This document shows, one piece after another, positions 1-40,555 of a DNA stretch of 40,555 nt (position 1 is the stretch's first letter; every line of letters starts with the position of its first letter). A model generated the notes under the pieces. It did not search any database. It was not told the DNA's origin and worked only from the letters and a program-made list of their open reading frames with translations. The position numbers were made by a program, and so were the translations under genes. The stretch is taken from assembly GCA_048213135.1 (NCBI GenBank), contig PS015218.1:13269-53823 (forward strand), given 5' to 3'. Origin of the DNA: Reclinomonas americana ATCC 50394 (taxonomy: Eukaryota).

Positions 1-3000
1 TGGCTCGCGCTCATCTACATTCATCATCAACGAGAGTTGCGTGAACTGCATTCAATGTTTCGTGGCTTGCAGGGTTCTCATTTGTGCTTCTTTGTCCACA
101 GGCAATGTGATACCGACTGCGCCAGTGCTGTCCACCAGCACGTACGTTCCCCCGTTGGCCCTAGGAGCCGCCATTGGCACACTCGCCGCCACCGATGTGA
201 ACACTGGGCAGACGCTGTCGTTCACCATCACCGGCGGTAGCGCGCAGGCCTCCTTCTCTCTGGTCGGCACCGATCTTGTCTCTGCTGTCGCGGGCCTCAC
301 CGGCAGCGGCCTGCAAGTCACGGTCACTGTCTCCGACGGCGCAGGAGGCAGCAACTCGAGCACTTTCCTCATCAACGAAGGTGATTCGCATTGCCATTGT
401 GTGTATCATGTTTGCCATACTCACGTGAATCGCAGCCAATGTGTCTCCAACTGCTCCCACCCTCTCGACCAACGCCTACATTCCTCCGCTGGCACTCAAC
501 GGTGTCATTGGCCTGCTCTCGTCAAGCGACGTGAACACGGGCCAAACGCTGACGTACGCCGTCACCGGAGGCGCCAATCAGTCCATATTCAATATCAGCG
601 GCAACAGTCTCCGTGCCAATGTGGCCAGTCTCACTGGCAACGGCCTGCAAGTAACAGTGACGGTCAGCGACGGCGCCGGTGGCTCAACCACAAGTTCATT
701 TGTCATCAGCGAAGGTGTGCATTCACACACACATACGCTCACACACTTGTCTTTCTTGAGTTACTCACGCCGTCTGTGTGCAGCCAATGTGTCGCCGTCG
801 TCGCCGGTGCTGTCGACCCTGGTGTACCAGCCACCTCTCGCTCTCCATGGAACTATTGGCACGCTGTCGGCGACCGACGTGAACACGGGCCAGACACTGT
901 CGTTCTCCATCACTGGCGGTGCCGATCAGGCGTCGTTTGAGATCAATGGAACCACTCTGCGCTCCAGTGTCGCGGGTCTGGTCGGTTCGAGTCTGCAAGT
1001 CGTCGTGACAGTAAGCGACGGTGCCGGTGGATCGTCACAGGCCACATTCATTGTCACATCAAGTGCGTTGTCTTTCTCCATGGTTTGAGCTTTTTCTTTG
1101 CTGATTTCTCACACTCCGCAGTTGGCCCCGTGGACATGGCTCTATCCTCGACCACCTACACGCCACCGACCTCGACCGCGAATACAGTGATTGGCACGCT
1201 CTCCACAACCGACACATCTGCCTCTTCACCCTACACCTACGCGGTCGTGGGCGGAGCCGATGCTGCTGTCTTCTCGGTCATTGGAGATCAGCTGGTTATC
1301 CGAGCTGCGGGCCAGCGAGGCACTGGCCTGCAAGTGCAGGTGCTGTCAACCAATGCCAGTGGACAAACGCTGGCCAAGTTCTTTACCATCAACGACGGTG
1401 ACTGACAGTGGTTGGTGAAATCAAAAGTGTGTCGATGCTCACTCCCTTCTGTCGCTTGCAGTACCCGTGGCCCCGACTGACGTACTTTTATCCTCGTCGG
1501 CCTACGCACCGCCCACACCCGCTGCCAATACGGTGGTGGGCACACTCACTGGAGTCGACGGCAATGCGAACGACGCACTGTCACTGTCGATCGTCGGTGG
1601 TGCGAATAGTGCTCTCTTCGACATTGTCGGCTCGCAGTTGGTACTCCGCAACGTAGGCCAGCAGGGCAGCAATTTGCAAGTCACCGTCCGAGTCAGTGAT
1701 CCGTCCGGCGCGCACGTTGACAAGACGTTTACCGTCAACGAAGGTGCGTGCATGTGCTTCTCTGCCTTCTTGTGTCTGTGTCGCTCATCGAGTCTGTCGC
1801 TAGCCAATGTGCCTCCGTCAGCACTGGCACTCTCTACCACCACGTACTCGCCGGTACCCGCACCCGTTGGCACCATCGTTGCCACGCTCTCAACCACGTG
1901 CGTTTGCACTTACGATTGTTCCTGGTCCATCTGGGGTTCGTGAAATCCTCACTCTGCACGTCACCACAGAGACGCGAACTGCTGTCAGAGCATGACGTAC
2001 TCGATTGTTGGTGGCGCTGCTGCGTCTCGATTCAGCATCTCCGGGAACCAACTGGTGGTCGACAGCAGTGGCGGTCCGCTCACCGGCAACAGCCTGAGCA
2101 TTGTGGTGCGTGTCGATGACGGTGCAGGCGGTGTTCGAGACCAGACATTTGTGCTGGACGAGGCCAATGTGGCACCGACGGCGGTGACCTTGTCGTCGAT
2201 GACATACACGCCGCCGTCACCGTTGGGCACGGTCGTTGGCACGCTGGCGGCTGTGGATGCCAATTGCTGTCAATCGTTCACCTATTCCATGTGCGTTCAC
2301 CGTTGAGCTGGGACATTCTGCTTTATCGTTCTCACGCAAGTCTTCTTTGTCAGTGTTGGTGGACCTGATGCCAGCAAGTTCTCCGTGTCGGGAGACCAGC
2401 TGGTGGTTGCAGCTGCCACTCTCAACACGTCGCCTCTCACCGTGATTGTGCACGCCGACGACGGCGCGGGCGGCTCTGTCGACCAGACACTGACCATCAC
2501 TGAAGGTTTGTGTGGCCGGCAGTGGGTTAGCACATCTGCTGCGCGTGTGGTTCACTTCTTGTTGCGCAGCTAATGTGCCGCCGAGTGATCTTCTGCTGTC
2601 GCCATCAACGTATGTGCCGCCAGCGGCACAGGGATCAGTTATTGGCTCTCTGTTTGTGATCGACGCCAACTGTTGTCAGTCACACACCTACTCCATGTTG
2701 CGCAACGACCAGCCGTGTTTTCTTTGCTGCTTACCTTCTCGTGTGCCTGCCAGCTGATCCCCTCTATCATGCAGTGTTGGAGGCGCAAACCAGGGTCTGT
2801 TTGCGGTCTCCGGCACCGACTTGCTTGCCAATGTTCCCGGTGGCTTGTCGGGCACTGGATTGCTGGTCACCATTCGTGTCTCTGATGGATTCTCCTCGTT
2901 GGACCGCACATTTACTGTCAACGAAGGTGTGTGTGTGTGTGTTGCGGAAATGACCGACGAGCTCGTACACCGCAAAGTGTGCCTTACTGACTGATGGGTG

Positions 3001-6000
3001 ACTTGTCGACTGCAGTCAACGTGGCACCAAGCGACATTATTTTGTGGGGGACAACGTACACTCCGCCGACCTCGAGCGCGAATGTCGTGGTGGGCTTCTT
3101 CACCTCGTTGGATGCCAACACGGGCGACACATTCACCTACTGTTGCGTCGTGCATGGATTGCAATTGTGTGGGGGTTACCATCTCTGATTGAGACTGACA
3201 TGATCGTGATCTCGTCAATGTCAATGCAGCAATCTCTGGCGGCCCGCACTCTGCCATGTTCAACATCAATGGCACGCAACTACGACTGAGCGCCGCAAAC
3301 TCTCGTGGCGATCCACTGCGGGTCGAAGTGCAGTCGACCGACGCGGCCGGTGCCTGGGTCCGCAAGCTGTTTATCATCACTGAAGGTCCCACATCTCTGT
3401 CGATCATGCCTGTTGTATGTCATCTCACTCGTCCGTACGCACAGTGAACGTGCCGCCATCGGCATTGGTGCTGAGCTCCAACACATATGTGCCGCCAACT
3501 CTCACCGCCGGAGTGGTGGTGGGTTCGCTCACCACCGTCGACGCCAACACGCTGGGCTCATACACGTACACGGTCGTCGCCGGCTTCAACGAATCGCTGT
3601 TTGTGCTCAGCGGGTCGACGCTATCGCTGGCACTGGCGGGGCAGACTGGCAACAACCTGCGTATCCGCATCGAAGTATCCGATGGTCGTGGTGGAACTAT
3701 GCAGACAACATTTACGTGAGTGTGCTGTCGCGGAGATTTGTGGTTCTCATTTTGATTCTCGCATCTAACTTTTTGTTTCTAACGTGCGCCTCCGTGTCTC
3801 TCTCTCTCCGCGCACAGCATCAACGAAGGTACCGTTAATTGCACATGATTCCACGCCTCTACTGTCCACTGATTGTATTTGTTTCGCGTTCTGCAGCCAA
3901 CGTGCCACCAGCAAACCTGGCGCTGTCGACAACGTTCTACGCTCCACGTAGTTTGCAGAATGCTTTGATTGGAGTGCTGTCGGCCACCGATGCTAACTGC
4001 TGTCAGAGTCTTTCGTACACTCTCATTGGCAATGACGACGACTCCAAGTTCTATGTTACGCACCGTCTGTCATTCGCTGTGTTGGTGTCGCGCGACTCTA
4101 GATCTGATTGTATGCTATGCGCAGATTGGTGGTGTTGCTGGTAACGAGCTGCATGTACAGACGCTGGTGCTGAGCGGCATGGTGTGTATTCACGCGGCTG
4201 CAAGAGAGTGTGTGACCCTTGCTCACGTGGAACGTTGCAGAACCTCGTCATCACTGTTCGCGTGAGTGACGGCAACGGCGGCTCACAAGACACCACTTTC
4301 TTCCTCAACGAAGGTGCGATGTGCTGCTGTCCGCCATCCTTGTGCACCTGTTGCTTACGTTGTTGTTTCAGTCAACGTTGCACCGTCGAGCATCTCGTTG
4401 TCACCGGCGACGTACGCGCCACCTTTGGCAGCTGCCAACACCGTGGTTGGCACACTGTCGGCTGTCGACGCCAACTGCTGTCAGACGGTGACGTACACGA
4501 TCCTGGCGGGTGGCTCCGGNNNNNNNNNNNNNNNNNNNNNNNNNNNNNNNNNNNNNNNNNNNNNNNNNNNNNNNNNNNNNNNNNNNNNNNNNNNNNNNNN
4601 NNNNNNNNNNNNNNNNNNNNNNNNNNNNNNNNNNNNNNNNNNNNNNNNNNNNNNNNNNNNNNNNNNNNNNNNNNNNNNNNNNNNNNNNNNNNNNNNNNNN
4701 NNNNNNNNNNNNNNNNNNNNNNNNNNNNNNNNNNNNNNNNNNNNNNNNNNNNNNNNNNNNNNNNNNNNNNNNNNNNNNNNNNNNNNNNNNNNNNNNNNNN
4801 NNNNNNNNNNNNNNNNNNNNNNNNNNNNNNNNNNNNNNNNNNNNNNNNNNNNNNNNNNNNNNNNNNNNNNNNNNNNNNNNNNNNNNNNNNNNNNNNNNNN
4901 NNNNNNNNNNNNNNNNNNNNNNNNNNNNNNNNNNNNNNNNNNNNNNNNNNNNNNNNNNNNNNNNNNNNNNNNNNNNNNNNNNNNNNNNNNNNNNNNNNNN
5001 NNNNNNNNNNNNNNNNNNNNNNNNNNNNNNNNNNNNNNNNNNNNNNNNNNNNNNNNNNNNNNNNNNNNNNNNNNNNNNNNNNNNNNNNNNNNNNNNNNNN
5101 NNNNNNNNNNNNNNNNCTGCTGCGACGTATTCACCTATTCCATGTTGCGACATTGTGCTCGACGACATTTCTCCGGTGCGTGCTCACATCACTCACTTGG
5201 TCGTGCCTACCCACAGAGTCGGTGGCGCCGATGCGGCCTTGTTCGCTGTCGTTGGATCGCAGATCCGCACCGCCGTGCCGAGCTTGAGTGGACGCAACCT
5301 TCAGGTGATTGTGCGAACAGATGATGGTCGTGGTGGAACGGTGGATACGACGCTGTCTCTCGGTGATGGTGCGCTGGAGTTGATCGTGTCCCTTGTACGG
5401 AGAGTGACGCGATACTGACACAGACAGAACCTTCGTTACCCGTTCGCAGCCAATGTTGCTCCGTCCGGCATCTCTCTCTCGTCGAACACATACACGCCGG
5501 CCACGTTGGCTGCGAATCAGCCAGTGGGCACGTTGAGCGCCACCGACCTCAATGCCTGGGACACGGCGACGTTCTCCATTGTTGGCGGTGCTAACCAGGC
5601 GCTGTTCACCATCATTGGAAATCAGCTGTGCTTGCGCAATGCTGGTCAGACGGGAACCAATCTGTCCGTGATTGTGCGAGCCACCGACACGGCCGGTGCC
5701 TCACTCGATGTGCCGTTCACTGTCAACGATGGTATGCCGATGATTGACTGACATGTGACGCAGCCTTCGGAGACTCACACTGCTCTCCCTCGCAGTACCG
5801 GTGGCACCCACGTCGGTGTCGCTCTCCTCCAGTACCTACGTGCCACCCACCGCCTCAGCCAATGGGGTGGTCGGCGTTCTGACGACTGCTGACTCCAACG
5901 CGACTGACTCGTTCACCTACTCGGTTGTTGGCGGCGCCGACGCTGCCCTCTTTGATGTTGTCAATGGCAATCTGGTGTTCAAGAACGCCGGGCAACGCGG

Positions 6001-9000
6001 TGACGGACTGCAGGTGGTGGTACGATCGACAGACTCCACCGGCAACTTTGTGGATCAGCCATTTGTGTTGAACGAGGGTGTGTCATTCTCGTTGATGCGT
6101 TTCCTCGATATCGATCGTTTCCAGTGCTGACATGTCGTGATGATTGATTCACGCAGCCAATGTGCCGCCTTCCAACCTCCTGCTGGACAGCACGTCATAT
6201 GTGCCACTGGATCCGACGCCGGGACAAGTGGTTGGCATCCTTCAAGGCGTGGATGCGAACACCGCCTCAACATTCACCTATTCGATTGTTGGCGGTGCCG
6301 ATGCTAGTCTGTTCTACATCTCCGGCAACCAGCTGCGCCTCGTCAACACCAACCAGTCCGGCAACAACCTGCAGGTGCTGATTCAAGTCAGCGACGGTCG
6401 CGGTGGCACCCTACAGCAATCGTTTTTGATCTCGGAGGAGAATGTCGTGCCCACCGACATCCATTTGAGTGGCACGACATATGTGCCTCCCACCAGCGGG
6501 CCATTCACGGTGGTCGGCACGCTGGCTACTGAGGACAGCAACGTCGGGCAGTCGCACACCTACACGCTGCAGCCGGTGGGCGACTTCGCGGTGTTCGACA
6601 TTGCAGCCGACGTGTTGCGCATTCGTGCCGCGGGCCAAGTGGGCCACTCGTTCAGCATTCAGATCCTGACTGACGATGGCGCTGGTGGCACGTTCTTGAA
6701 GTGGTTTACCATCACCGACGGTGAGTAGTACGCTTCGATGAGCATCGTAACCCCAAGTGTTCAAATTAACACACTAACACGCTGTTTCTCGTGCAGTGAA
6801 TGTCCCTCCCACGGACATTGGTCTGTCGCCCGCATCGTACCTGCCGCCGACATTGGCAGCCAATACGGTTGTGGGCACTCTCTCAGCCACTGATGCCAAT
6901 GGTTTTGTATTGCTTCTTAGCTGCACACAATTGTTTCTGTTACTCATCCTTCATCTTTTCCGTCTCTCTTCCGTCGCNNNNNNNNNNNNNNNNNNNNNNN
7001 NNNNNNNNNNNNNNNNNNNNNNNNNNNNNNNNNNNNNNNNNNNNNNNNNNNNNNNNNNNNNNNNNNNNNNNNNNNNNNNNNNNNNNNNNNNNNNNNNNNN
7101 NNNNNNNNNNNNNNNNNNNNNNNNNNNNNNNNNNNNNNNNNNNNNNNNNNNNNNNNNNNNNNNNNNNNNNNNNNNNNNNNNNNNNNNNNNNNNNNNNNNN
7201 NNNNNAGTTGCCGATGTGCACGCCTTCAGTATCGTCGGTGGCTCAAATGCAGCTGCATTCGACATTGTGAGTGGCAACCGTCTGGTGCTGCGCAACATTG
7301 GTCAGCGAGGCACCCTCGCAGTGGTCGTTCGAGCCACGGATGCCGCCGGGGCCAATTTCGACAAACTGTTGCGTTAATCATTTGTCTTGCTTCCGCATCA
7401 GTCGGTGTGCTCACGCTGCCTCCACTTTTCCAGATTTACCGTCGTCGATGGTTGCGTACCATTTTTGTCACTTGGCTGTCATCCTCAAAGTGTACCTCCT
7501 TTTCTAAGTTTTTTGTCTTTCCCTCACAGACCCGGTTTCACCGTCGGCTATCACCGTGTCGGCGACGACGTATTCCGCACCCACGCCGTCTGCAAATACG
7601 CCGGTCGCCACGTTGACAGCCGTTGACGGTAACATCAGCGACACGTTCACGTTCTCAATCGTGGGTGGCGCTTCGGCCGCCTTGTTTGATGTGCAAGGGA
7701 ACCAGCTGGTTCTCCGCTCTGCGGGCCAGACGGGCAACGGACTGCAGGTAGTTGTGCAGGTGAGTTCACAGGATTGTCCGTGTCCAAGTGCGCTGCCTTT
7801 GTGCTTGCTGACTGTTGTGTGCAGGTGACGGACAGCACTGGCCGGAGTGCGGTGCAGACGCTGACATTCAACGAAGGTCGGTCATCGCTTACTGCTACTT
7901 GTCGCTGGTTATTTCTCATCAAGATTTCTCGCACCATGGCCAGTCAATGTGCCACCAACGGCACTTGCACTCTCACCGCAACTGTACACGCCGCCGGGCG
8001 TGGTGGGTGCCACTGTTGGTCAGCTGACGACCACCGACAGCAATACCGGAGAGACATTTACGTACTCGATTGTCGGCGGTGCCAATCAGCTGGCCTTCAG
8101 CATCAGCAACGATCGCCTGTTGGTGGCCACCACGGGACTCTCCGGTAATGGCCTTTTGGTGCAAGTGCGTTCCACCGACTCGGGCGGTCTTTCCATTACA
8201 TCCACCTTCACAATCAACGAAGGTCTGTGAAGCCTCTCCGCCTGTCTCCTGAATCGATGATTGGCACACTCACGCTTCCTCCACCACCAGCCAACGTGCC
8301 ACCGACGTCCATCTCGCTCAGCAACAACACCTACACTCCACCAACCACCAGCGCCCTGCAGCCCATTGGCATTCTCAGTGCTGTGGATGTGAACACTGGC
8401 CAAACTGTGTCATTTACCGTCCGACCTGGCGGCTCCGGCGCCCTCTTCACCGTGTTGGCCACGATGCCACCCCAGTTGGCCTTCGTGGCGGCAGGTCAGC
8501 GTGGCACTGCCTTGACTGTCACGGTAATTTGACGAAGAAGTGCCAGAGTATGTGGTTGCAGCATTGCGTCTTTGTGACTGACATTTTTGTGGCGCTGCAC
8601 GCAGATTCGAGCGACGGACTCGGTTGGCGGCTTCTCCGACCGCAATTTTGTTATCAACGACTGTTGCGTTGTTACTCGCCAACAGTCGCAATCTTGCTCT
8701 CCCGCCCCCTCACTACAGCTACTTTTTGCGCAGTGCCCGTGCCACCCACCGCCATGGCGCTGTCTTCATTGACGTACACACCGCCGACTGCCGTCGCGAA
8801 CACTGTGGTCGGCATCCTCAGCGCGGTAGACGAGAACACGGCTGACACATTTACGTGGTCGATTGTGCCGGGTGGTCAGTCGAATCTCTTCGACGTGTCG
8901 CCGACAGGTGCTCTCATGCTGCGAAACGCCGGTCAAGGTGGCAATGGATTGCAGGTCACTGTCAAGGTTTGTGGAGCAGCCTCTTTCGTGGGGAGATTGG

Positions 9001-12000
9001 TGTTTCCTTGCTGACTGTCAAATTGCAGGTGACCGACAGCGCCGGTAACACGCTGACTCGCACATTCACTATCGACGAAGGTTTGACCTTATCTGCTTGC
9101 TTGATGTGCGACGCGCGATGATGTGCTAATTCGTATTCGTGTCGGCAGCCAATGTGCCACCGCAATCTACCACGTTGACGCCCAACACGTTTGTTCCTCC
9201 GACACTGGCGGTGAATACAGTGGTGGGCACGCTGTCGACAGTGGACGCCAACTGCTGTCAGTCGTGGACGTACACGATTCAGCCGGGCTTGCAGGGGGCT
9301 GTGTTCAACAGTTTCGTGCGCGAGTTTGTTAGTTTCCCAATCTTCTGCGCAGTAACACTTACCTATGTGGCCTTGTGTCGCAGTCTTTGGCAATCAGCTC
9401 CGCATCTCGTCAGCTGGTGTGAAAGGCTACGGAATGCAGTTGGTGGTGCGCACCACTGACAGCGCTGGTGGCATTCTGGACTCAACGCTGACGGTTACCG
9501 AACGTGCGTCTCTCGATCATGACGTGCTTATCGTGTTCTTGTGGCAGCGTCTCACATCTTGTGTATTCTATTCTCCATAGAAAATGTGCCACCCACCATT
9601 CTCTCTCTGTCGTCCTCCACGTACATACCGGCTACTGTGACGACGAACACCGTCATCGGTGCACTCTCTGTGTTTGATGCCAACTCTTCGCCTCCGGAGG
9701 CGCACGTATTTTCGATTGTGGGCGGGTCGTCGTCATCGCTGTTCAACGTTCTCGGTGCCAATCTGGTGCTGGTGAACGCCAGCCAGGTTGGCACCAACCT
9801 GCATGTCATTGTGGTGCGTTGGTTGTTTTTGAAGGGCAGTATGTGGTCGTGCTATGGACTGACTGCATGGAAACAGCGCGTCACGGATACACTCGGCCCG
9901 GCATCACTCGACAAGGAGTTTGTCGTCACTGATGGTGCGTAGCTCGGTCTTCATCCTCTGTTACATCTCCTTTATTCCTCACCGCATCATCCCTAGTTCC
10001 GGTGCCGCCACGGGCCGTTCTGATGTCGTCGTACTCCTACACACCTGCGTCTGCCACTCCCAACACACCCGTCGGCAATCTCACGGTGCTTGACGACAAC
10101 GTGACCGATATTGCCACATTCTCGCTGGTCGGTGGCGCCAATATGAATCTCTTCGCAATCGTCGGTTCCACGTTGGTAGTGCGCAACGCTGGTCAGGTGG
10201 GAAACAACTTGAGCGTGATTGTTCGCGCCACCGACAGCGCCGGCCTGTTCCGAGACGAAGTTTTCACCATCAGCGAAAGTTGCGTCTTTTCGTTTGTTCT
10301 TGCTTTGCAATCTTGTTGCTCTCCCCTCTCTCGTCACCTCTACCCCTTTCCTATTCTCTCTCATTCTTTGATGACTCTGGCTCGCAATCCTTATTTTTCG
10401 TCTTCCCTTACGCCCAATGCATGCAGGTAACTCGCCTCCCACAAATATTGGACTCAGCAAGCAGTATTATGTGGCGCCTACCTTGACCAACAATTTCGTG
10501 CTCGGTACACTCTCAGCAGTCGATGCCAACTCGCAAGATTCTTTCATGTACTCCATCGTGCCTGGCCAGGGCGATGCACTGCTCAACATCAACAACGCGG
10601 CCGTGCCACCTGAGCTGCGCATCACGGCAGCAGGACAGACAGCCTCCAATCTTGTCGTTACCATTCGTGTCACCGACAGCGGTGGCGCCTCATTCCAGAA
10701 GACGTTTGTGATTGCCGCCAGTTTCGTTCTCGTTCTCTTCTTCTCGTGCAAGTCGCCGTATGCCGTCATCGCTAACGACTGCCTTTGATTGCCTGCCACC
10801 TCCTCGCAGTCGCTGCAACTGGATTCTTACCAGCCACGGCGGCCACTGACACATTGTCGAGTGGCTTCACTGTTGTCGGCACGAACCTGGCAAGCACCCA
10901 GTTCTTCCAGCTGCAGTCTGCTAGCACGGCTCCCTGCAATGGCTCCGGCATTCCGCTCACATCGACCACCGTGGTCTCGCAGGCAGCATCGTTGCCGCTG
11001 GGTGTCACCCCCGGCCCCATTCCGACCGGCAGCTGTTACGTACACCTTCTATCAAGTGCTGTGTGGCGTGCGCGTGTCTCTCACGTCGAGTGCAGACATT
11101 GTGTGTTTCTCGGTGGACGGCGTCTCGCCGTACGTGCAAGTGGGCACGACCAGCTTGTCAATCGGTGTGTAGCAGTATGTGAGGCTTGTGTTGGTCTTGG
11201 CAGTCCTGTTGATTTCTTGCACAGTGCGCGCGGCTGCACTGATTCCCAATGCCGTTGTTGCTGACGAATCAGCGAAGCGCATCACCGTTCAAGGTAATGG
11301 GTTGAACAAGGCGCGCAATGTGTTCAAGTTAGTGCTGCGGTCGACGACATGTGCCAGCGGTGCTGCTGTTGGCACAATCACTGGTGAGGAAGAGACCTTA
11401 TTTTGCGTGTTTCTGCTGACGCGTTGCTCATTCGCGCTGTGCAGTGGATCCTGTTGGACCAACCGACACGTCCCTTGAGTTGCTGGTCGCCGTGCCTGTG
11501 CCAGCCGACCTGGTGAACGGCACATTCCTGCGCATGTGTATCCAGGTCAATGTCGGCACGCCATTTGTTGAGTTCACGCCAGTGGCGAGCAACGGCGATG
11601 TCACCGCAGGTACGACAAAAAGTCGATCCCTTCCTGACCGTGTTTGCGTGCTGAAATAACTGACGATCATTCTCGCAGTGGTGATCTCGTCAATCGTCCC
11701 CAATGTTCTTTCTGTCGGCACATCGCCACTCTCTGTGCAGCTGGTTGGCGCACACCTCGATGCCGCCGATCAGTACGTGGTGGCACTTCCGTCGACCACA
11801 TGCACCGTGCCTGCTGGTAGCAGCCCGGCTGGCGCAATCACTACCACGGTCGTCACTGCGCCACCCTCCTCAGCCACGCTCACGCTGGCACTCCCGCTGA
11901 CGGCCGGGGTGTATAAGTTGCGTTAAGAGGGGAGATGTACAAGGACAGGTCAATGTGCATAATCCACTCATGCACTGTCTTGGTGCGCGCAGGGTGTGCA

Positions 12001-20422: not shown

Positions 20423-20430
20423 GTTGCGTG

Positions 20431-23000: not shown

Positions 23001-24064
23001 TCGCCGTCACCGTCAGCTGCCCGTACGCTCCACTCGACGCGCTGCCTTGCGACGGAACCACATCTGTCGGCAGAATCGACGGATTGACCTGCGTTGCACC
23101 AGTGCCGGTCGTCTTACATCCACGCAAGAACGCGGCGGTGTGGAAATCAGTCTGTTTCAATCCGCGGGTTGACTGACGGCTGATGAGAGTGACCATCACC
23201 GGTGTGTTGCCCACCAGCGTGCTCTCTGTGCAACACGTCGGTGATCCATGTCAGTAATCGTGCACAACTGCCGGCAAATCTTCGCAGACAAACTCACCTC
23301 CCGTCACCATCACGTAGCCACTGGAATTGTCACGCGGCACCAGCCGCGATCCCACCAGCATGGAGCGCAGCTCCAACGCCTGCACGCGACTATCGCCGCG
23401 CACCGTCATCAACACCTGCGAGGTGGCAGCGGCCGCCTCACCGACAGCCACCTCAAAGTTGTCGCTGCGCGCCGTGCCACTCGGATCGAGTCGAATGGAC
23501 CGCACACCCGTCAGCGCCAGCGCAATCGACGGAATCTCATCAAACCCGAACGCATGGGCATTCACGATCTCCTGCACACACAGTCGCGTGGTTGCGATGA
23601 ATGAGTCCAAGGACCATGGACAGGTCTGCATGCATCAACAAACCGTAGTGAAATTCTTGTCGGTGGCCAGGCTCAGCCACTCATTGGCAGCTTTCTGACG
23701 CGGCAGCTCGTTGTCGTGTGTGTACGTCGCGGCAGGGTCCGCGTACATGGCGATGAAATCTGCCACACAGGTCGTGAGTTTCATGCAAGTGTGCACGAAT
23801 ACGAAGTCGATCGCACGAAACTGGTAATGAGCGAGTCGAACTGCGCAGTGCCGAGTGCCGAGCACTGCACCGTCAGCATAAACTTGGTGACCGACGGCCT
23901 CGCGCAGCGAATGTCGGTGTCGCCCTCAATCGTATTGGAGAGAGCGGAGATGCCAAAGAGCACAGTGGGAATCGCCGGGAACGATTGCACAAAGCGGTGC
24001 GTGATCTCCACGGAGCGAGTGCCAGTGCCTGTGCTCATCTGTCGCACAACCAGTGTAACATTCG
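23001..24064 (-). CDS. Fragment of a protein with tandem H-type-lectin-like domains (both ends lost in gaps/repeats)
   Basis: Exons 24064-23822, 23759-23644, 23571-23298 and 23225-~23001 join in frame. RSVEITHRFVQSFPAIPTVLFGISALS...IRCARPSVTKFMLTV and HAFGFDEIPSIALALTGV resemble the F..F...P.V..G(L/I)..L pattern of H-type lectins (discoidin/HPA). Confidence 0.5.
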
Positions 24065-26521: not shown

Positions 26522-27629
26522 TCATTCTGCATGAGGACGCGGTGTGGCTGTTGCTGCCACGCGCGGATGCCGGTAAGAGGCGCCCCACCGCACCCAGGCG
26601 AGTCCACGGACCACCAGATTCAGGAACCACGTGACAAACACCACAAAGAGCACAAAGAGCCAGAACTGCTTGTTGGACATGCGGTCGAGGAACGGGTACG
26701 GGAAGTGCACGTCCAAGTAATACCTGTGCGCGTGTCAGTTGCGAGACGGCGGCGGAGGGTGGAGAGTGTGCGGAAAAAACGACGCAACATGTACTGCAGC
26801 CACAGCGAGTAGATGAAGACGAACAGGGCGCCGACTCGGAGATCATCCCGAACGCGGTTCCACTTGTGTCGCACCAGCACTGTTTCACCAATGACGGCCA
26901 GCGCCACAAACGAGTGGATCATGTTGTTGAGGAGCCACGGTACTCGCTTGAACGCCTCCTCGGTCGGGTACAGCAGCGTAGGCGACACCAGCAGCATGCC
27001 TATATATCATGCATGAGTGTATGCTGCGAAGTGTACATCATGGGTGATCTCGGACACGCGCGCGACACACAGACCCCAGTACATGACAGCGACAAAGAAG
27101 CCGACGGGAGCGATCAGTGAGCGGAACAACACGTCCAGCCACCGCGCATGCGACAATGTCACGGCCTCGGCAGCAGCACTGCCCCGTCGCACTCGATACC
27201 ACAACTCACGCACGTTGGTCGCCGTGGCAATCACAAAGTACGCCGCCTCCATGTACTGTGCGTGCGTATGTGCGTGCATGTGAGTGGACAGCACACTCTC
27301 CTCTTGTGCGCTGTGCGTGTCATACCATGTTCCAGGTGGTGAGGAAGCGAGCGGAACCGTACGTGCCCCATCTGCCATAACGGACTTGAGATCAAGATTC
27401 GCACACACAGTCACGCACACACAGTCACGCACACTCGGAGACACACACACATGGAGACACACACTCTCCTGCGCCCACTGATATGGAGAGAGCGAGAGAA
27501 CAGGTGACTTGCTGATCATGAGGCACGCAACAGTGAACCTGGCAAGCGTGCCGCGTGCATGGAAACGAGGCCGACGATAAACGCTGCCGCCATGGCGGTG
27601 TGGTATGTGAGCGTGAGAAGCCAGTGCAT
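26522..27629 (-). CDS. FAR-17a/AIG1-like (AIG1/ADTRP family) multi-pass membrane Thr hydrolase
   Basis: Five exons from ATG 27629 to TGA 26522. Motifs GSARFLTTWN (family FLT with catalytic Thr), VMYWG, NNMIHS (catalytic His) and FPYPFL, plus several hydrophobic helices. Confidence 0.8.
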
Positions 27630-30800: not shown

Positions 30801-31297
30801 TGTTGCACTCGACAATCAGAGAGATGTTGTTTGTCACAAAGAGAGAGTGAGTGAAAGAGAGACGCAACGCGTGTGCTGCGTTGGCACTGCGGACCCAGTG
30901 AAGCGAGCCACCAGTGCCGATTTCCCTGTGTGTGCGTGTGTGAGTAATGAGAGAGCGGTCCATGCGTGGGACCAGTTACAAGCATATCGGGTCCGGTTCA
31001 CACGCTCTCTCTTCGACGCACACACACTCATGCACGCGCGACGGAACACGTGCACACACGCGAGGAGAACAGGAGAGAGCGAGAGAAACGCGCGCGCGGG
31101 GTGGCGGGCGAGAGGGCCATGGCGAGACAGGGAGATTGCCTGACCCGCGCCCGTGACTCGCGCGACTCACACAAAGTCGCGTCCGCCTCTCCGCACTCGT
31201 GTCTGTGTGTCTATGTGCGTGCGTGCGTGCGTGTGTGCAACTCACCGACACCAGTGTCGCCAACCACGACGAGATTTACCCGCTCAGACCCGGTCAT
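27898..31297 (-). CDS. Atypical Rab-like small GTPase with a long C-terminal extension carrying three copies of a ~55-aa alpha/beta domain (~800 aa, ~12 exons)
   Basis: G1 VVVGDTGVGKS, G2-like HTPTT, G3-like TDVGG, IAYDVTKHSSFDSATSTWLGEVRR, G4-like ILVGTHSD and G5-like FMEVSCQ. Exons are frame-continuous through to the stop at 27898. Confidence 0.75.
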
Positions 31298-31387: not shown

Positions 31388-33266
31388 TCATTCAACCTTG
31401 CTCTTGACGCCACCGTGCGCCTCTTCCCGCTCCTCGTCGTCGTCGACATCGTCGGCGGGCGATTTGCCACGGCGAGCAGCGATCTCTTCGGCTCGGCGAT
31501 TGCGCAGGGCATCGCTGCCACCGGCGCGGTGCTGCTGCTGCACGCGGTTCCAGTACTCTACAAACTCCCACTGTGTCGTTGTTTTTCGCACGCGCAGTGA
31601 GGAACTATTATACAAACAAAAAGGCGGATATTCTCTGTTGGTTATTATTACTGCGCACCTTGACATCGGCGCCGAGCGATAACTCGATCATGCCCGAGTG
31701 GTCGCAGATGCGCTTGCGCACGTCGCTCATCCACTGCCGCACCTGGTTGTCGACAAAGGCGCCGGCATCGGCGGAGCTGTCAGAGCCGGAGGGTGCCGAC
31801 GACGAGCTGCAATTGCACGAGTGAGAGAAAAGGTGGAAGTGAAAGCTGGCCGGCGCGACGCAACTCGCGCCACAAGACGTCGTTGGGGTGCTTCTTGCGT
31901 TGCGCGTCGCGGAACTCTTGGAACGATGGCAGATCGACCACGCGCAGCACGTTGAGCGAGTTGTGCAGCTGCGACGCCATGTTGAACACGTGCGCAAACG
32001 GCGAGCCGACGGTGAACGACGGGCTGAACTCGTCGTATGTGTACTGGAAGATGCAGACGTGCACCCGCGACACGTGCTCGAGAATGTGCTGGAACATGTC
32101 CCTGAACTGCAGCACGCCTTGCCCGTTGGTCGTCGTTCCCTGTGTGCGAACGTGAGTGCAGTGACACAAAGTACGAAGCTCGTGCCATCCGCCAGCACAC
32201 ACCTCGGGGAACACCACCACCGGACCGAGACCGCGTGTGCGGGCCATCTTGACGAGCTCACGAAGCGGCATGCACTGCATGCAATGGAAGAGTCAATTCC
32301 ACTCACTCTCTCTCTCCTCCACCGTCTCCCACTCTCAGCGACTCACATCAGCGGCCAGGTGCTGCTTGGGGAACATGCACTCTCGCACTGCACTGATCGT
32401 CTGGCACGGATACACCCATCCCTGGCAATCGCTGCCGCGGTGAGCGACAAACACCGCTTCGTGTCCACACGGCACTCACCTCCGTCAACCCCGGCGTGGG
32501 CGTCGGCACCATGGCAAACACGGGTGCGTAGCGGAAGCCCAGATAGAGAATGTCCACGTACGAGATGTGATTGCAGAGGAGAATGTCACCGTGCGCCAGG
32601 TCCAAGCCCGCGCGCTGGGAGAACGAGAAGGGCGGACTGCACACACACACACACACACACACACATGTCACTTCCGATTGAACAGCGACCCTTTCCTACG
32701 CGGGTGTGCACACGCAACGAGGTGTACAGCTCGTCGGAGCGCTGTCGCGAGTTGATCCAGAAGTAGCCGAGAAGGAAGAGAATGGCGCGGCAGTGCAACG
32801 TGTGCGCGTAGCGTTGCAGGAGTCGTCGGATCACAGACACAGGAACCTGCACAGCATCATCAGCTCTCTCTGCGTGCGTGCATGTGCGTGCATGTGCGTG
32901 TGCGTGTGCACAAGCACTCACCAGTGTGAACAGTGCGGTGCTGCCAATCAGGGAGAGGCAGACGGCGGCCAGCAGAATGCATCGCACCACGCCCAGCAGT
33001 CGACCAAGCACATGCCGCTTGAGGGCCAACACAATGCGCACTGGCACACCGTGTGGCTTGTTCTTGGCCTGAGAGAGAGAGAGAGAGAGCGAGTGAGCGC
33101 GTGTGTGTGAGTGTGTGGAGCAAGAAACAGGGACCTTTGGTGGCACGAATGGCATGATGCCTGTCCGCTTGTCTTCGAACTGCGTGTGTGCATGGTGAGT
33201 GAGGAGTGGTGCTGCAGAGGTGGGAGAGAACCCTGCTGGTTGGTGAACCTTGCGATACTTCTCCAT
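31388..33266 (-). CDS. LOA1: LOA1/VPS66-like lysophosphatidic acid acyltransferase (LPLAT/PlsC superfamily)
   Basis: The N-terminus MEKYRK|FEDKRTGIMPFVP matches the MEK(Y/F)..(W/F).D..TGI.PF motif of Loa1/Vps66. Catalytic NHISYVD (HxxxxD) and VVVFPE|GTTTNGQGVLQF are present. Ten exons, stop at 31388. Confidence 0.75.
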
Positions 33267-33339
33267 GTCGCAACCAAGTTGTCTATCACGGTTCATGGGA
33301 CGAGGACGGATGCGAGACAACAGACTTTTTTCACTGCTT

Positions 33340-36300
33340 TCAACTACGGTACAGGGATCCTACAAATGGTTGCTGTGGTACAATGGTCGGAGCCTGCACA
33401 TCAGATGTGAGTGACGGGAGAAGGAAGAGAAACAGCAAAGTGGGACGCACTAGTGGTGGGGGAGCGGCGGTGGGTTGTACAGGTGCGCCGACTGCCATGA
33501 GGCCTCGCTGCGGCAGGCGCGGGGTGGAGGTATTGGTGGATGATGGTGGTCTCCTCAATGCAGCAGCGCGGTTGCTCGCTTCCGCACTCTTCGTGCGGAC
33601 GTGCTGCACCGAGGCAGCGGCAGCGGCAGCACTTGGACCGGGCGGTGGGCCGGATGCTGCAAGCACTGGCAAGTCAGCCCACACCGCCAGCAACCACAGC
33701 AACACAACACACTCTCCACAAACCTAGAGCAGGGGAGCGATTGTACAATTTGGGTTGGCTTCTGCAGAACACAACGAAAACATCGACAAAGGGTGAGTTC
33801 GTCGACACTGCGAGTTGGCACGACGAGGAGGGGTTACTCACCCAGTGCCCTTGACCAGTGGTGGTTGTGCACCACCGGGTTGCGCGCGGACACCCACTGA
33901 CATTTGCGTGCCAGTGATGCCGTTGCCGATACCCAGACCGGGCGCCAGCAGATTCGAAGCGCCAGCCATGTCGGCTGCGACACTGTTGACACCGTTGGTC
34001 ACCTGCAGCTGCAAGGCCGAGTCGCCAATGCTGCCGGTGCTGGCGGAACGCGCGAGTGCAGTAGAGCTGTCCACACCCAGACCATTGCTGGTGCCCACCG
34101 ACGTCTTGTTGAGACCCGAGCCGTACGAGTTCTGTGCCACCAACTGAACGTGCATGGGCATGCCACTGGACGACTCGAGCGGCAAATGCTGCTGCTGTTG
34201 CTGCTGTTGTTGCATCTGCTGTTGTTGCTGCTGCTGTTGCATCATGATCTGCTGCTGCAATATTTGCTGCTGCTGCTGCTGCTGCATCTGCAACATCGCT
34301 AATTGCTGCTGCTGTTGTTGCTGCTGCTGTTGAATCAACTGCTGTTGCTGTTGCTGCAGAATGGACTGCGCCGTTGGCCCCTGCTGCATGCCATTGGGTT
34401 GTTGCGCGGCCAGGTACACCACCTGCTGCGCCACCATTTGCTGCTGCTGCTGAATGTACGCGTACTGCTGCGGGTCGGTAGGTTGTCCAGAGATGGTGCT
34501 CACGCCCACGTACTGGCCAGCACCGGCACGATCCGTGTACACGTTCGGGTGCATGTGCGTGTGTTCTTGCGAGAAGAACATGTCCACACGCATGCGCTCC
34601 TCCGGTGTCACCTCCTTGCCGTCAATGACTCGCACATTGGCCAGCCTGCACATGCAGTGAGCACAGAGATCGCACAACGAGCCCGCCAACAACAACAACA
34701 ATAGCGACTGGACCTTCTGATGAGGTGCGGTCGGTACATCGGTTTCCGACTGACAGGGTTGAAGGCCATGACAATCTCCAACACTTGCGTCAGCGGCATG
34801 AGTTTCTGTAGGCATGCACAGTGTGAGTCACCAGGTTCACGCTGTCGATGAGCACACATGCACGACACACCTCCAGTTCGCTGAGTTCCGAGATGCGATT
34901 GAATGCCAAGAACAGACTCCGCACGCTAATTAGGGGATTGAGGTGGTCGAGCGTGCGCAAGCTGTTCTCTCTGTTGTGCACGGGCAGGTGAGACACCGTG
35001 TAAGAAAGAGAGAGAGCGCGTTCATCAAGACACGCGGCAACACGCAACTCCAAGTGCAGCTCCTCCAGATTGACCAGCGATCGCAGCGAGGTCTCGTCGA
35101 GCTGCCGAATCTTGTTCTTATCAAGGGCGAGCTCGCGGAGGCCGACGAGGCCGTCCAACCCGTCGACCTTCACCAGGGCATTGCCCTGTAGTGAGAGCGA
35201 GCGCAGATTGCGGCAGTTCTGTAACCGGAAGGGCGACAACCCGCTGATCTGGTTGAAGCCGAGTTGCAGCACTTGCAGGTTCACGAGGCGCTCCAGTGAA
35301 AACTGGTCCTCCACCATTTGCGCGGTCAGCGACGGCGGCAACGCGATCTTGTTGTGGTTGGCGGAGAACAGGCACAGCGATGTGATGCGATTCACACCCC
35401 GCAGGTCCACCATCACGTTGTGGTCGAGGTTCAGCTCTCGCAAGTTGACAAACGACGACAGCAGCGAGGCATCGCGAACACCACAATGTGACAGATTGAG
35501 CTCGGTGATGCCTGTTCATACACACACACACATATCAGCAAAGTACTTCCCCTTCCCCAGACAGTGCAGTGCCCGCAACGTTCTGCCTCAAACCCAGGCC
35601 CCAGTCGCTCCGACAGCATCTCCGCGGTGATCTTCCCACTGAACTCCTCCTTGGCACGCGCCGTCTCTCGCGAGTCAATGCTGACGCCGTCGAGTACCTT
35701 TAGCCGCTTGAGGTGCCAGATGGCGAACAGACGGTACTCGGGATCCTGGGTCAGCGGATTGCCCCACAACTCCAGGATGATTAGCCGCGGCACCTCCTTC
35801 AGCAGCGCCAACTCGCGCACACTCTCGATGCGGTTGTTGCCCGCGTACAGCTCCATCAGCGAGACACAGTGTTGCACACCGTCGAGAGACCGCAGCTCAT
35901 TGTCCTCCATCGACAGCACCAGCAGCGACGTCAACGACTCGAGGTTCTCGATTTTGTGAATCTGTAGCAAGAGACAGGTAAGACACCTACTACTGTGTTC
36001 GGAGGCGGTAAGCAACACACCTTGTTCTTGCCCAGATCAAGACGGCGAAGCGAGGTGAGGCTCTGCAGCCCCTCAATGCGACAGATACGGTTGTCCTCCA
36101 GTGACAGCTCCTCCAGACGCGTGCACGAATCGAGACCCTCGATGCGACCAATCTCATTGTCAAACAAACTCAGCTTGCGCAGCGCAGTCAAACTGCACAC
36201 ACAGACAGAGAGAGAAGGCGATGAGGACTCACAAGAAGCAGATGAGTAAAAAACGAAGAAGGAGAGACGACACACCGCTCCAAATTCTGAATCTTGCGAA

Positions 36301-39300
36301 TGCGCATCCTCGACAACTCCAACTCCACCACACGCGAGAACCACGTCGAATCACGAATGCCTTCGGCAGGTGGCGGCTCCGTGTTGAAACCACGCAGCAT
36401 CGACAGCGGTGAGTTGAGCAAGTACGCGTGTGCCAGTGAGTCGCTCTCTCGCAGTGTGTGCCGTCCGTAGCGTGCCAGCAACTCGGGAGTGATGAGCGAC
36501 GTCTTTTCACCAGCAGACACCTGTGCACAGCAAAGCACACACTGCGCGTCAGCTCGTGCATCGTACTTGACGACCATGCACACAGACGTGCGCAACACCA
36601 ACCCGTTCATGCCGAGTGACCGGCTCGCCGTCGAGGTTGACCAGCACAGCGAGCCGGCGAACGAGCAGCTGTCGGTAGTTCTTGACGTCGCAAATTCCAT
36701 TGTTGCGCAGATTGAGGTGGACGAGATTCGGAGTGTGTCGCTTCAGCATATTGATGTCCTCCAACCGGTGAATGTGGTTGTTGTTGAGCAACAGCGTGTG
36801 CAGCTTGTTGAGGCCCTCCAGGCCGTCAATGCGTCGAATGGCGTTAAACGACAAATCCAAAAATCGTAATTGTACGCACGCCTGCCCCCCAAACCGCCAC
36901 GCGTGTCAGCATGTGCGCCAAGATGGCAAGTGCTTGGAGAAGACTACACACACACACAAACCTGCACGCCGTCCATGCTGCTCAGCATGTTGAAAGCCAG
37001 CGTGAGATGCCACAAATTGGCACCCACATTCTCGATGCGGGTGAGCGCCGACTCGAGCAAATACAGCGTAAAGGAATTCGACGAGTCGCTGTCATCCGCC
37101 GGTGCGTCGTCTCCATCGTCGTCGGCATCCCAGTGAGTTCCCAACATCTGCGCAGCAGGCTGTCAGCACCCCTGCTTCTCTCTGTTTTCCGCATGTCACG
37201 AGCGCGCACCTCCACCACACTGGGAGTGATGACACCGACTTCGGGCACGTTGGGAATGACTGGCGCCATCTCCACCAGTGCACGCACATCGGCATCATGT
37301 GGAGGCCGCACAGCACGCGGTCGCGCCGGCGATGTCAAGCCCCCATCAGCATCGCTGTCGGGCGACACGTCCACCTCGTCTCGTGCACTCGCATACTGCG
37401 CCTGTCGGTCCTCCTCAATCATGGACAGCGCCAGCTGGCGGAACTTGGCATACGCTGGTGCCAATGCTCGAATGTCCATGACGTCGCCCTCGCTCTGCGG
37501 CTCCAGGACACGCATCAACTCCTCAGTCGATGCGTCTTCCCAGGGCCCCTCGCGCTGTGTGGTGCGTGAGTATCGTGGATTCCCATCGAGAGAGAGAGAG
37601 GGACAAGGGGAGAGAGGGACGCACCGGCTCGCCATATTCGAACTCGATGAGGTATTCAGGCAGGCACAGCGCGTGATCAAACACGTGCCATGTGCGCTGC
37701 TTGCTGTCCTGCTTGTGACACCGGAACACGCTGGTGTAGTCGGGGAACTCGTCCTGCGAGATGCCAGAGGCCTCCGGAATGGGCTCGGGGTGCACCTTGC
37801 CGAGAAACACCTTGACAATGATCATGAAGCCGGAGGGGAACTCACGGCCGTCGATCGGCTGGCTCTTTGGCACACCCTCTGGGTGACGAAAAGAAGTGAG
37901 CAGCGCGATGCGGACGACAGGAGACATGGAGCTGGAGAGAACGAACCGCGCGTGGAGGCCCAGTGCTCCGCAAGAGCACGGAGACGAGGCATGTCACACA
38001 CGGAGACGCTGTTGGTCAGCGGAATGCCAGAGGTGCCTGTCGAATCCTATTTTTTTTTAATATTTTTGCATTATGTCAGCACAACATCAAGTGTGCGTGC
38101 GGGAAACGCAAGACGACGCAACTTGAGAGGACGAGAGATCCGGGAAGCCGGATTCAATGATGCGGAACAACTCGGAGGGGTCGTTGGGAGACTGCCCGTA
38201 AAACAAGTACTCCAGCGACCGCTTGTAACTCACGTCACTCACGTCGACCAGGCGTTCCAGTGATTGCTCAAAGCGATTGCGAAGGAAGCGGTTGTGGATG
38301 CGGATCACACGAGTCACACGCACAGACTCGGTGCGCACCGCCGGCAAATCAGGTGACGGGTACGTCAGCGACGATGCTGCCTCCAGCTGGGCCACACTGG
38401 TCAATGCTGCAACACGTGAAATGATGGTGGGAGTGAGTGAGTGAGTGAGCGTCATGTGTGCAAGTGCACGTAGACAAGGAGATGGAAACCGACCTGTGCT
38501 GGAGGACGGACTGGACGATGCTCCGGTGAAATAGCGATTGCGCACCAGATCGACGCAGGACGTGTACCACACATCACTCGGCTTGCCCTCTTCCATGCGA
38601 ATGTTGCCGCCAGTCTCCAACTCCACCACCAGGCGACTGTTCACGGGGGCAGCGATGATGAGGACGTGGATTGCGTGCTGGGTACGCCAACCATGCGACG
38701 CAAACCTAATATTCATCGACGAAATGTGCTCTGCGTGCTGTCGGAATGCCGTAAAATGCCGTTGTAGTGCCGAAAGCTGCGAGTAGCGGCGGGCGGTGGA
38801 ATCAATCACCAGCTTGCGCTTGCGTGTAATGGCATCCAAGTGCTCCTTCACGCTGTTGAAACCGGCGTACGTGGTGAGATAGTGGCCCTGGAAGTCTTGG
38901 TACTGCGGAGCGGACGATGAGAGGCGTGTGTGAGAGAGAGAAATGGCAGGGTAGAAGGGGAGGGTCGAGCCACACCATCGGTCCGCGTCCATCACGCAGT
39001 TGGGTCATTTCGCGATCCACCTGCTTGCTCAGTCGGAGAAGCGTGGAGAGATTGGAGTCCAGATGCGACAGCACACGCGACCGCAATGCGCGTCCGCGAC
39101 GAATGACATTCGACGTGTTCCGCTTGAGGGTCTTGATGCGCATATTGTAGTACATGCGCTTCTTGATCACAGTGGCGTCGGCAAGTCGACGCGCCTCGTC
39201 GGAGACTGCGAGCGTGTCCAGCGTCTGAATGCGAGGCAGCGCATACAAGGCGTAGGTCTGGTAGTTGCAGAGAAGGCACAGCGGATTGGCGCCAAAGTGC

Positions 39301-40548
39301 GGATCGGTGAGACTGACGCGAATCAGGCGCGGCATGCGACGCAGCACCGACAAGCAGCGAAAGGAGCCAATCAGGTTGCCGGCCAGATTGAGTTCCTGCA
39401 CACAGTACTCGTCAGCTTCGACGATTGCACTCTCTCTTTCCGCATGCATTGTGTGTGGGGCGCGCAACAGTGAGATTGGTATTGTGCAGCAGCGCCTCGT
39501 CAATGCGCTCGATCTTGTTCATGCCCAGCATCAACACCTGCAACTCCTGCAGCTGCTCGATACCCTCAATGTTCCTCAATCGGTTCTCCGACAACCACAA
39601 CGTGTGTAGATGCGTCAAGTGGTCGAGACCCGTGACGCGCTCAATTTGGTTGTCGTGACTGTGTCGGGCGCGCGTGAGAGACGTGTGGATTGCAAAAAAT
39701 CACCGCAAGTTNNNNNNNNNNNNNNNNNNNNNNNNNNNNNNNNNNNNNNNNNNNNNNNNNNNNNNNNNNNNNNNNNNNNNNNNNNNNNNNNNNNNNNNNN
39801 NNNNNNNNNNNNNNNNNNNNNNNNNNNNNNNNNNNNNNNNNNNNNNNNNNNNNNNNNNNNNNNNNNNNNNNNNNNNNNNNNNNNNNNNNNNNNNNNNNNN
39901 NNNNNNNNNNNNNNNNNNNNNNNNNNNNNNNNNNNNNNNNNNNNNNNNNNNNNNNNNNNNNNNNNNNNNNNNNNNNNNNNNNNNNNNNNNNNNNNNNNNN
40001 NNNNNNNNNNNNNNNNNNNNNNNNNNNNNNNNGGAGAGGCACGCAACAGGTACAACTCGCGCAGACGAGTGCACGACTCGAGTCCCGAGATCCGCGTAAT
40101 GCAATTCTCCATGAGCCACAGTCGCTCGAGGTGCACCAGCGTCTCCAGCCCAGTGATCTCGGCGATCTTCAGTCGCACCAACATCAGCGACTTGAGATTG
40201 GGAAAGTGATGCAGTGCGTTGACGGCGGCGTATTTCGAAAAGAACATCTCCAGCGTCTCCACATTCTGCCGCCGCTGCAGAAAGTCCTCGTAGGAGATAC
40301 CGTTCTCCGAGCACTGCAAACCGGCGGGCGTCAACAACACCAGCAGCGGGAGGAAGGCAAGGGAAGGGAAGGATCGAGCTCACCAGATACTGCACTTCGG
40401 GATCTTCAAAGAGCACCTTGCTGGTCTGCTCATCAAACGGCTGCCGCGTGGCCCGCACCTCCTCCTCCTCCTCGCCTCCATCATCGTAGCCGTAGCCGCC
40501 CATGGCACCGCGCACGGGCACCAACGCCGAGCGCGACGACGACGGCAT
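33340..40548 (-). CDS. LRRC9: Leucine-rich repeat-containing protein 9 (LRRC9) homolog with polyQ/Pro-rich C-terminal extension (~22 exons; start at 40548 or 40503, or beyond the window)
   Basis: SDS22-type LRRs at both ends. LRRC9-typical motifs NPLCLLCNYQTYALY, KKRMYYNMRIKTL, ELETGGNIRMEEG, RIHNRFLRNRFE, LEYLFYG and WHVFDHALCLPEYLIEFEY. Confidence 0.85.
34186..34452 (-). repeat. Coding (CAG/CAA)n polyglutamine tracts in the LRRC9 tail
   Basis: (ctg/ttg)n on the + strand translates to multiple Q5-Q10 runs in frame with the final LRR-cap exon. Confidence 0.9.
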
Positions 40549-40555
40549 CGACCCG

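Follow-up and report, generated by a model that had tools for sequence, protein, structure and literature searches.

Two kinds of splice donor that differ in their use of the last exon base in a 40-kb stretch of the Reclinomonas americana genome

Introduction

Pairing of the U1 small nuclear RNA (snRNA) with the 5' splice site in shifted or bulged registers has been proven in human cells, where it is rare. According to PMC4856993, validated non-canonical registers make up 1.5% of 201,541 donors, a bulge at +2/+3 is predicted for 68 of the 201,541 (Table 3 of that paper), and an example oligonucleotide for the shifted register has an A before the GU. A second line of work divides 5' splice sites into right-handed and left-handed ones, classes linked to LUC7 that also differ at position -1, the last base of the exon (Kenny et al. 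2025, PMC11842720). Our searches for shifted registers or shifted base-pairing found only human work, and full-text searches for GTTGCG or GUUGCG as a splice donor, which did not cover the organism's own genome paper, returned nothing relevant, only primers and similar matches. Here we describe the introns in a stretch of 40,555 bases from Reclinomonas americana ATCC 50394, an intron-rich eukaryote (assembly GCA_048213135.1, contig PS015218.1, positions 13,269 to 53,823 of the forward strand). This single 40-kb stretch, hereafter the window, contains two discrete kinds of donor, and the kind is coupled to the last base of the exon.

Results

The window holds two kinds of U2-type donor, about 70% ordinary and about 30% of the form GTTGCGT. 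The ordinary kind combines an exon-assisted G/GT (a slash marks the exon-intron boundary) with a loose GTNNGT, whereas the second kind is a fixed, intron-only heptamer that differs from the best ordinary donor, GTGCGT, by an additional T behind the GT. We regard the second kind as discrete because a self-trained model blind to position -1 found it unaided. This Viterbi gene model joined codon log-odds, an intron Markov model, an acceptor matrix and a branch-motif bonus to a donor term that was a two-component mixture over intron positions +3 to +9 only, and it converged at 108 introns before curation. One donor component was GT followed by G[N]GT (weight 0.68) and the other GT followed by TGCGT (weight 0.32; per-position maxima 0.90, 0.75, 0.95, 0.95 and 0.74). 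Early passes that lacked the second component misplaced many donors and were superseded by the two-component version.

Curation by reading frame gave 103 introns in seven genes of the window, which has six runs of N and a genic G+C content of about 57%. All spliced open reading frames (ORFs) are free of stops across the 103 junctions: the three segments of a giant repeat protein gene (1091, 470 and 2026 amino acids, aa), an LRRC9 orthologue (1798 aa), an acyltransferase-like gene (415 aa), a Ras-like gene (798 aa) and two small genes. The models were built from the DNA sequence, and the junctions rest on reading frames and on LRRC9 orthologues. The 103 leave out the region 15458-18240, where the gene model is unsure, an incomplete intron starting at 6902 beside an N gap, and two likely donors of the second kind, at 17893 and 20423, that have no verifiable acceptor. 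A candidate 'intron' of 36 bases (14725-14760, plus strand) was rejected from the count, as the frame reads through it and the others have at least 55 bases; it is kept as a splice only in the reading-frame model of segment C of the repeat gene and is probably coding.

For counting, the second kind was defined as GTTNCG and named class S, which comprises 31 of the 103 introns (GTTGCG in 26, GTTACG in 2 and GTTTCG in 3). Its share in the seven genes is 2 of 9, 14 of 53, 6 of 21, 5 of 11, 2 of 4, 1 of 3 and 1 of 2. The exon positions -4 to -1 hold 0.74 bits of information in class S and 1.84 in ordinary donors, and the intron positions +3 to +9 hold 8.27 and 2.59 bits, respectively, three of the S positions being fixed by definition. 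T stands at +7 in 24 of the 31; the four copies of GTTGCG within curated coding sequence that are not donors are all followed by C or G and never by T. Judged by frame, the GU at the predicted cut is kept in every S donor (31/31), and for 21 of the 31 there is no alternative in-frame GT within 15 bases.

The class of a donor is coupled to the base that precedes it. G occupies -1 in 2 of 31 class S donors and in 63 of 72 ordinary ones (Fisher p = 1.7e-15); the full counts are T 13, A 10, C 6 and G 2 for class S, and G 63 with three each of A, C and T for the ordinary kind. The scarcity of G and its two occurrences, at 7451 and 13172, had been reported in a first-pass annotation of the window and are reproduced here; its tally for 32 donors (T 12, A 11, C 7, G 2) is obtained from ours by adding 17893 (-1 A) and 20423 (-1 C) and dropping 36596 (-1 T). 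Outside the repeat gene the counts of -1 G are 0 of 17 against 30 of 33 (p = 1.2e-10), and within it 2 of 14 against 33 of 39 (p = 4.7e-6). Two uncurated model outputs give 2/29 against 54/68 (p = 1.3e-11) and 2/27 against 53/69 (p = 2.9e-10), and the direction is identical in every gene.

Part of this pattern is the known balance between the exon and intron sides of the splice site, which the window displays in sharp form. The nine ordinary donors after a non-G exon end are GTGCGT (six), GTGAGT (two) and GTGCGC (one), precisely the strongest motifs, as the earlier annotation had said of some nine such ends, and the weak G-ended donors that it listed (GTCCCA at 3386, GTTCCT at 13409 and GTAATT at 8524) are present in the curated set. 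Ordinary donors outside the three strong hexamers follow a G in 47 of 47 cases, and G+3, G+5 and T+6 occur together at 8 of 9 non-G ends against 22 of 63 G ends (p = 0.003). The rule that non-G ends need strong motifs whereas G ends tolerate weak ones is therefore seen in the window, but it is not new: exon-side and intron-side classes are established (PMC11842720), with a preference for U at -1 in the intron-side class, and T is the commonest base before class S donors. One could accordingly suppose that the coupling is a by-product of a strength threshold, a strong intron side letting the exon G drift away and G ends letting the intron side decay. We think it unlikely that this is the whole explanation, for it leaves two observations unaccounted for. 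The strongest ordinary hexamers have G at -1 in 16 of 25 cases against the 2 of 31 in class S (p = 5.6e-6; without the repeat gene, 9/12 against 0/17, p = 2.2e-5), and of the 38 exon ends that lack G, 29 are followed by the displaced motif and not by GTGCGT. The T at +3 does not by itself account for this, because all 12 ordinary donors that combine T+3 with G+5 follow a G. These comparisons support a coupling that is real and that exceeds general compensation of strength.

The repeats of the giant gene offer paralogous introns for comparison. Among 23 at repeat boundaries, 18 have G at -1 (17 ordinary and one class S), and the five with another base are three class S donors and two GTGCGT (p = 0.021); the ordinary ones after G carry mostly weak motifs, such as GTCCCA, GTACCG and GTGATT. 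At one paralogous position ccat/GTGCGT (2291) corresponds to ccat/GTTGCG (2697 and 5144) with the exon unchanged; GTGCGT and GTTGCG thus interconvert by gain or loss of a single T that leaves the exon untouched.

Five class S junctions of LRRC9 (donors 40047, 39468, 38122, 35579 and 35048) are gap-free within conserved blocks of an alignment with eight orthologues. A sixth donor is ambiguous: using 36596 (GTTGCGC) creates an insertion of two residues relative to all eight orthologues, which vanishes if the intron starts six bases upstream at 36602 (cgg/GTTGGT). On this alignment the upstream site is probably the one used; we treat the pair as ambiguous and count 36596 in class S, and dropping it changes nothing in the -1 result. 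Alternative use of the two sites would add or drop two residues. It could be argued that the whole pattern is an artefact of misplaced donors or of pseudo-replication, given that the models come from DNA, that 36596 is probably wrong and that one repeat gene holds 53 of the 103 introns. We consider this very improbable in view of the contrast in the non-repeat genes, the five orthologue-supported junctions, the -1-blind model, which gives the same table, and the paralogous repeat introns, which switch class together with the -1 base.

Beyond the donor, class S introns look like the others. A branch-like motif, CTCAC or CTGAC, occurs in 25 of 30 S and 67 of 72 ordinary introns, at a median distance from the 3' end of 20 and 18 bases; C stands at acceptor position -3 in 28/30 and 66/72; median lengths are 71.5 and 68 bases, and body composition is alike. 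Since branch site, acceptor and length are common to both classes, the same spliceosome presumably serves both, and we reject a separate spliceosome of the minor type. An introner or other mobile family was also rejected: an all-against-all blastn comparison of the 102 N-free introns gave only microsatellite matches of at most 16 bases. The word GCAA, complementary to donor positions +2 to +5, is found in 11 of 30 S and 7 of 72 ordinary introns (p = 0.003; six words were tried). Duplex z-scores against shuffles are nevertheless alike, at -0.55 for S and -0.44 for ordinary introns, and base-pairing between the donor and the intron interior was rejected as a mechanism specific to class S.

The genes and the class S introns are listed in Table 1. 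The name of the acyltransferase-like gene is a reading of its translated sequence, and a Pfam search of one of its exons gave no family. In the Ras-family gene the exon after S intron 30466-30536 opens, from its first residue on, with the Pfam Ras match (E = 4.5e-10); a homologue search with the Ras-domain exon gave no match at E <= 1e-5 among proteins of 79-252 residues. The best homologues of LRRC9 are about 55% identical and taxonomically scattered, and the protein has a long glutamine-rich tract (about 34180-34480, minus strand) and a C-terminal extension without counterpart in the eight aligned orthologues. Relatives on metagenome contigs were found at 80 loci, none close, the best match covering part of the query at about 60% identity; no locus has more than two copies of GTTGCGT and 67 of the 80 lack it, but most of these loci look intron-free and are hence uninformative.

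Two micro-exons of the repeat gene, of 11 bases (3818-3828) and 17 bases (7434-7450), both on the plus strand, each lie just before a repeat boundary. The introns flanking them are 3716-3817 and 3829-3896 for the first and 7368-7433 and 7451-7529 for the second, the latter pair both being class S. G/A-rich low complexity or tandem arrays occupy 15491-16424, 19330-19740, 20430-20661, 21598-21842 and 24119-25004, with units of, in that order, (TGAG)n in about 104 copies, 105 bases (3.9 copies), 16/33 bases, 114 bases (2.1 copies) and 101 bases (8.9 copies). They lie in long introns or between genes and are the source of the strong GC skew of the window.

Table 1. Genes, class S introns and related donors in the window. 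Donors are written exon end/intron start; 'frame' means that the junction is supported by the reading frame.
Feature	Position	Strand	Donor	Remarks
Giant repeat protein gene	1..15457	+		3 segments split by N gaps; 53 curated introns, 14 class S
Domains of the repeat protein				Weak Big_9/cadherin-like repeats (Pfam Big_9 E = 3.8e-4, below cut-off); C-terminal membrane helix
S intron	36..101	+	gaga/GTTGCGTG	Repeat boundary; frame
S intron	2697..2774	+	ccat/GTTGCGCA	Paralogue of ordinary intron 2291 (ccat/GTGCGTTC)
S intron	3142..3229	+	tact/GTTGCGTC	Frame
S intron, variant	4055..4124	+	ctat/GTTACGCA	Frame
S intron	5144..5216	+	ccat/GTTGCGAC	Frame
S intron	7368..7433	+	aact/GTTGCGTT	17-base exon next
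S intron, -1 G	7451..7529	+	gatg/GTTGCGTA	One of only two with -1 G
S intron	8663..8733	+	gact/GTTGCGTT	Repeat boundary
S intron, variant	9311..9383	+	aaca/GTTTCGTG	Frame
S intron	10279..10426	+	gaaa/GTTGCGTC	Repeat boundary
S intron, variant	10721..10809	+	gcca/GTTTCGTT	Frame
S intron, variant	11035..11095	+	agct/GTTACGTA	Frame
S intron	11917..11992	+	ataa/GTTGCGTT	Frame
S intron, -1 G	13172..13233	+	gctg/GTTGCGTT	Second of two with -1 G
Likely S donor	17893..17899	+	aata/GTTGCGTT	Uncounted; gene model unsure
S intron	18664..18733	+	attt/GTTGCGTT	In a further gene starting at 18241; frame read from sequence
Likely S donor	20423..20429	+	aatc/GTTGCGTG	Uncounted; ORF ends 9 bases on; acceptor lost in repeats/N gap
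Partial gene after N gap	22971..24064	-		3 introns, 1 class S; ORF to stop
S intron of partial gene	23760-23821	-	cca/GTTTCGTG	
Small membrane protein gene	26524..27628	-		4 introns, 2 class S; ORF to stop, frame from sequence
S introns of small membrane protein gene	27372-27531, 26724-26788	-		
Ras-family GTPase, long tail	27900..31297	-		11 introns, 5 class S; ORF 798 aa to stop
S introns of Ras-family gene	30797-30868, 30466-30536, 29963-30032, 29687-29757, 28854-28921	-		Frame
Acyltransferase-like gene	31391..33266	-		9 introns, 2 class S; ORF 415 aa to stop
S introns of acyltransferase-like gene	32637-32718, 31807-31864	-		
LRRC9 orthologue	33343..40555	-		21 introns, 6 class S; 1798 aa to stop; homologues and 8-orthologue alignment
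S intron	39659..40047	-	acct/GTTGCGTG	LRRC9; N gap inside; gap-free against 8 orthologues; tblastn continuous from residue 125 to 126
S intron	39396..39468	-	cact/GTTGCGCG	LRRC9; gap-free against 8 orthologues
S intron	38047..38122	-	tcaa/GTTGCGTC	LRRC9; gap-free junction
Ambiguous tandem donor	36521..36602	-	cgg/GTTGGTGT at 36602 or ggt/GTTGCGCA at 36596	LRRC9
S intron	35512..35579	-	gaac/GTTGCGGG	LRRC9; gap-free junction
S intron	34971..35048	-	tgga/GTTGCGTG	LRRC9; gap-free junction

Discussion

The leading, though unproven, reading of these observations is that U1 pairs with the intron-only heptamer GTTGCGT in a register shifted by one base, and we give it a probability of roughly 40%. The same stretch of the U1 5' end would recognise the GCGT core shared by both donor kinds, and as the core of the heptamer lies one base further from the cut, U1 would have to sit in a non-canonical register there. 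The first G of the intron would then occupy the slot of the exon's last G, with cutting still taking place before the GT. If the intron G fills that slot, the exon end carries no signal in class S, and an intron can adjoin codons whose last base is A, C or T. The canonical register is closed to class S because +5 is C, which is so in 31 of 31 S donors (by definition; 0.95 in the blind model) against G at +5 in 63 of 72 ordinary donors.

The main competitor among registers is a bulge, in which G+1 and U+2 would pair with C8 and A7 of U1, one U would bulge out and GCGU would pair as it does in GTGCGT; the exon end would then be free simply through the strength of the heptamer. We compared canonical, shifted and +3-bulged registers by nearest-neighbour energies, with pseudouridines treated as U and with the generic 11-base U1 5' end printed in PMC4856993, which may not be that of this organism. 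On this basis the bulged register has marginally the best mean of the three for the 29 S donors with a non-G end (+0.16 kcal/mol), and a bulge at +2/+3 is experimentally proven in human cells (PMC4856993). Its mean advantage over the canonical register is about 0.8 kcal/mol, both being unfavourable; the bulge criterion given in that paper is an advantage of at least 1 kcal/mol. A bulge also leaves C9 free, and G at -1 should then help by about 3 kcal/mol (-2.9 against +0.16 in the bulged register, compared with a gain of about 0.6, -0.2 against +0.38, in the shifted one) and be enriched, an expectation that is our own rather than a published criterion. The scarcity of G before class S donors, set against its frequency before the strong ordinary hexamers, does not agree with this. 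The absence of enrichment fits a shift, or any mode independent of the exon, better than a bulge, which we hold to be rather improbable.

Several results weigh against the shifted register. With the generic U1, the mean energies for the 29 donors with a non-G end are +0.96 (canonical), +0.38 (shifted) and +0.16 kcal/mol (bulged), none of them favourable, and over all 31 donors the shifted register is better than the bulged one for 10, worse for 9 and tied for 12. The two S donors with a G end average -2.6, -0.2 and -2.9 kcal/mol in the same three registers, and ordinary donors in the canonical register average -6.75 (G end, n = 63) and -2.43 kcal/mol (non-G end, n = 9). The claim of the first-pass annotation that U1 pairs better in the shifted register is therefore not borne out with this U1, an outcome that the annotation itself had named as refuting its proposal. 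Under a shift, -1 would lie opposite U10, and its composition in class S should resemble that of -2 in ordinary donors; this prediction fails (A 10/31 against 41/72, T 13/31 against 12/72; p = 0.033). Thus, of the earlier idea that the intron supplies the missing G through a shift, the coupling beyond strength and the exclusion of the canonical register stand, whereas the expected likeness at U10 does not appear. The sample, moreover, is one 40-kb window in which a single tandem-repeat gene contributes 53 of 103 introns.

Nor is G clearly avoided before class S donors. A codon-position baseline of 0.30 predicts 9.3 G at -1, and P(<=2) is 0.0014 (the frame of one small gene was mis-set, affecting 2 of 31 phases). 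Backgrounds matched to the motif, which likewise tell against the shifted reading, remove this depletion: G precedes exonic GTT in 44 of 285 cases, against which P(<=2) = 0.12; of 27 GTTGCG sequences that are not donors, 5 follow a G (Fisher p = 0.23 against the 2 of 31); and when all four bases are compared, the -1 position of class S shows no difference from exonic NGTT (p = 0.13). What is firm is the absence of any enrichment of G before S donors: the exon end is unconstrained, and active avoidance of G is not supported by the motif-matched background.

The heptamer might instead be read by something other than a standard U1, such as a U1 with an altered 5' end, a second U1 variant, a protein or another snRNA. 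Class S has near-zero affinity for the generic U1 in every register and yet seven conserved positions, and humans are known to carry U1 gene variants (PMC3561869, PMC10870369). Ordinary donors are also odd opposite the two pseudouridines of U1: +3 is A in 7 of 72 and G in 44 of 72, and +4 is C or T in 50 of 72 and A in 18 of 72. This is unlike the purine and A preference expected there, and hints at an unusual U1 or another reader. An Rfam scan of the whole window gave no match and no U1 gene was found in it. The 5' end of U1 is not known to vary much among eukaryotes, and this counts against a non-standard reader, which we regard as doubtful. A combination is also conceivable, in which two reading modes form a system because the U1 5' end is altered or because a second U1 variant is fully complementary to GUUGCGU in the shifted frame. 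We judge this quite unlikely; if it were true, about a third of introns would owe their definition to the intron alone, and the exon-end G rule would no longer bind the coding sequence.

Whatever reads them, the S introns alone dispense with the exon-end G, and they therefore offer a natural test of the way in which the start of an intron is recognised during splicing. A genome with one such non-canonical-register motif at about 30% of its introns would constitute a natural system with many replicates. It could show which register is used, how U6 deals with a displaced core at the later step and whether there has been co-evolution of U1. With regard to coding constraint, introns would be able to sit after any codon end without cost. 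For annotation, gene finders with a single donor model will misplace these introns.

Among known systems, U12-type introns share with class S a long conserved donor motif on the intron side and no need for G at the exon end, but neither the donor GTTGCGT nor the branch motif matches the minor-spliceosome consensus. Sites with a bulge at +2/+3 (Roca et al. 2012; Tan et al. 2016, PMC4856993) are similar in having two U's after the G, one of which could bulge. They are predicted for 68 of 201,541 human donors, compared with 31 class S donors among the 103 introns of the window, and the missing enrichment of -1 G in class S argues against the likeness. Shifted-register sites (Roca and Krainer 2009, as described in PMC4856993) share with class S a GU at the cut, a poor canonical register and a non-G exon end, and their intron core pairs one base further along U1, as that of class S would in the leading reading. 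As described there, however, they are a rare exception in human, whereas here about 30% of introns carry one fixed heptamer, and generic-U1 energies do not single out the shift. The LUC7 classes (PMC11842720) also comprise two stable kinds of donor, one relying more on the exon and the other on the intron, the intron-side kind preferring U at -1 when it is not G; they use a single register and grade into each other by their consensus matches, whereas class S is a discrete motif with an inserted base. In right-handed donors the intron side carries more of the consensus than the exon side does, and class S has 8.27 bits against 0.74, three of its intron positions being set by definition. Class S is best filed as an extreme, displaced form of intron-side ('right-handed') donors.

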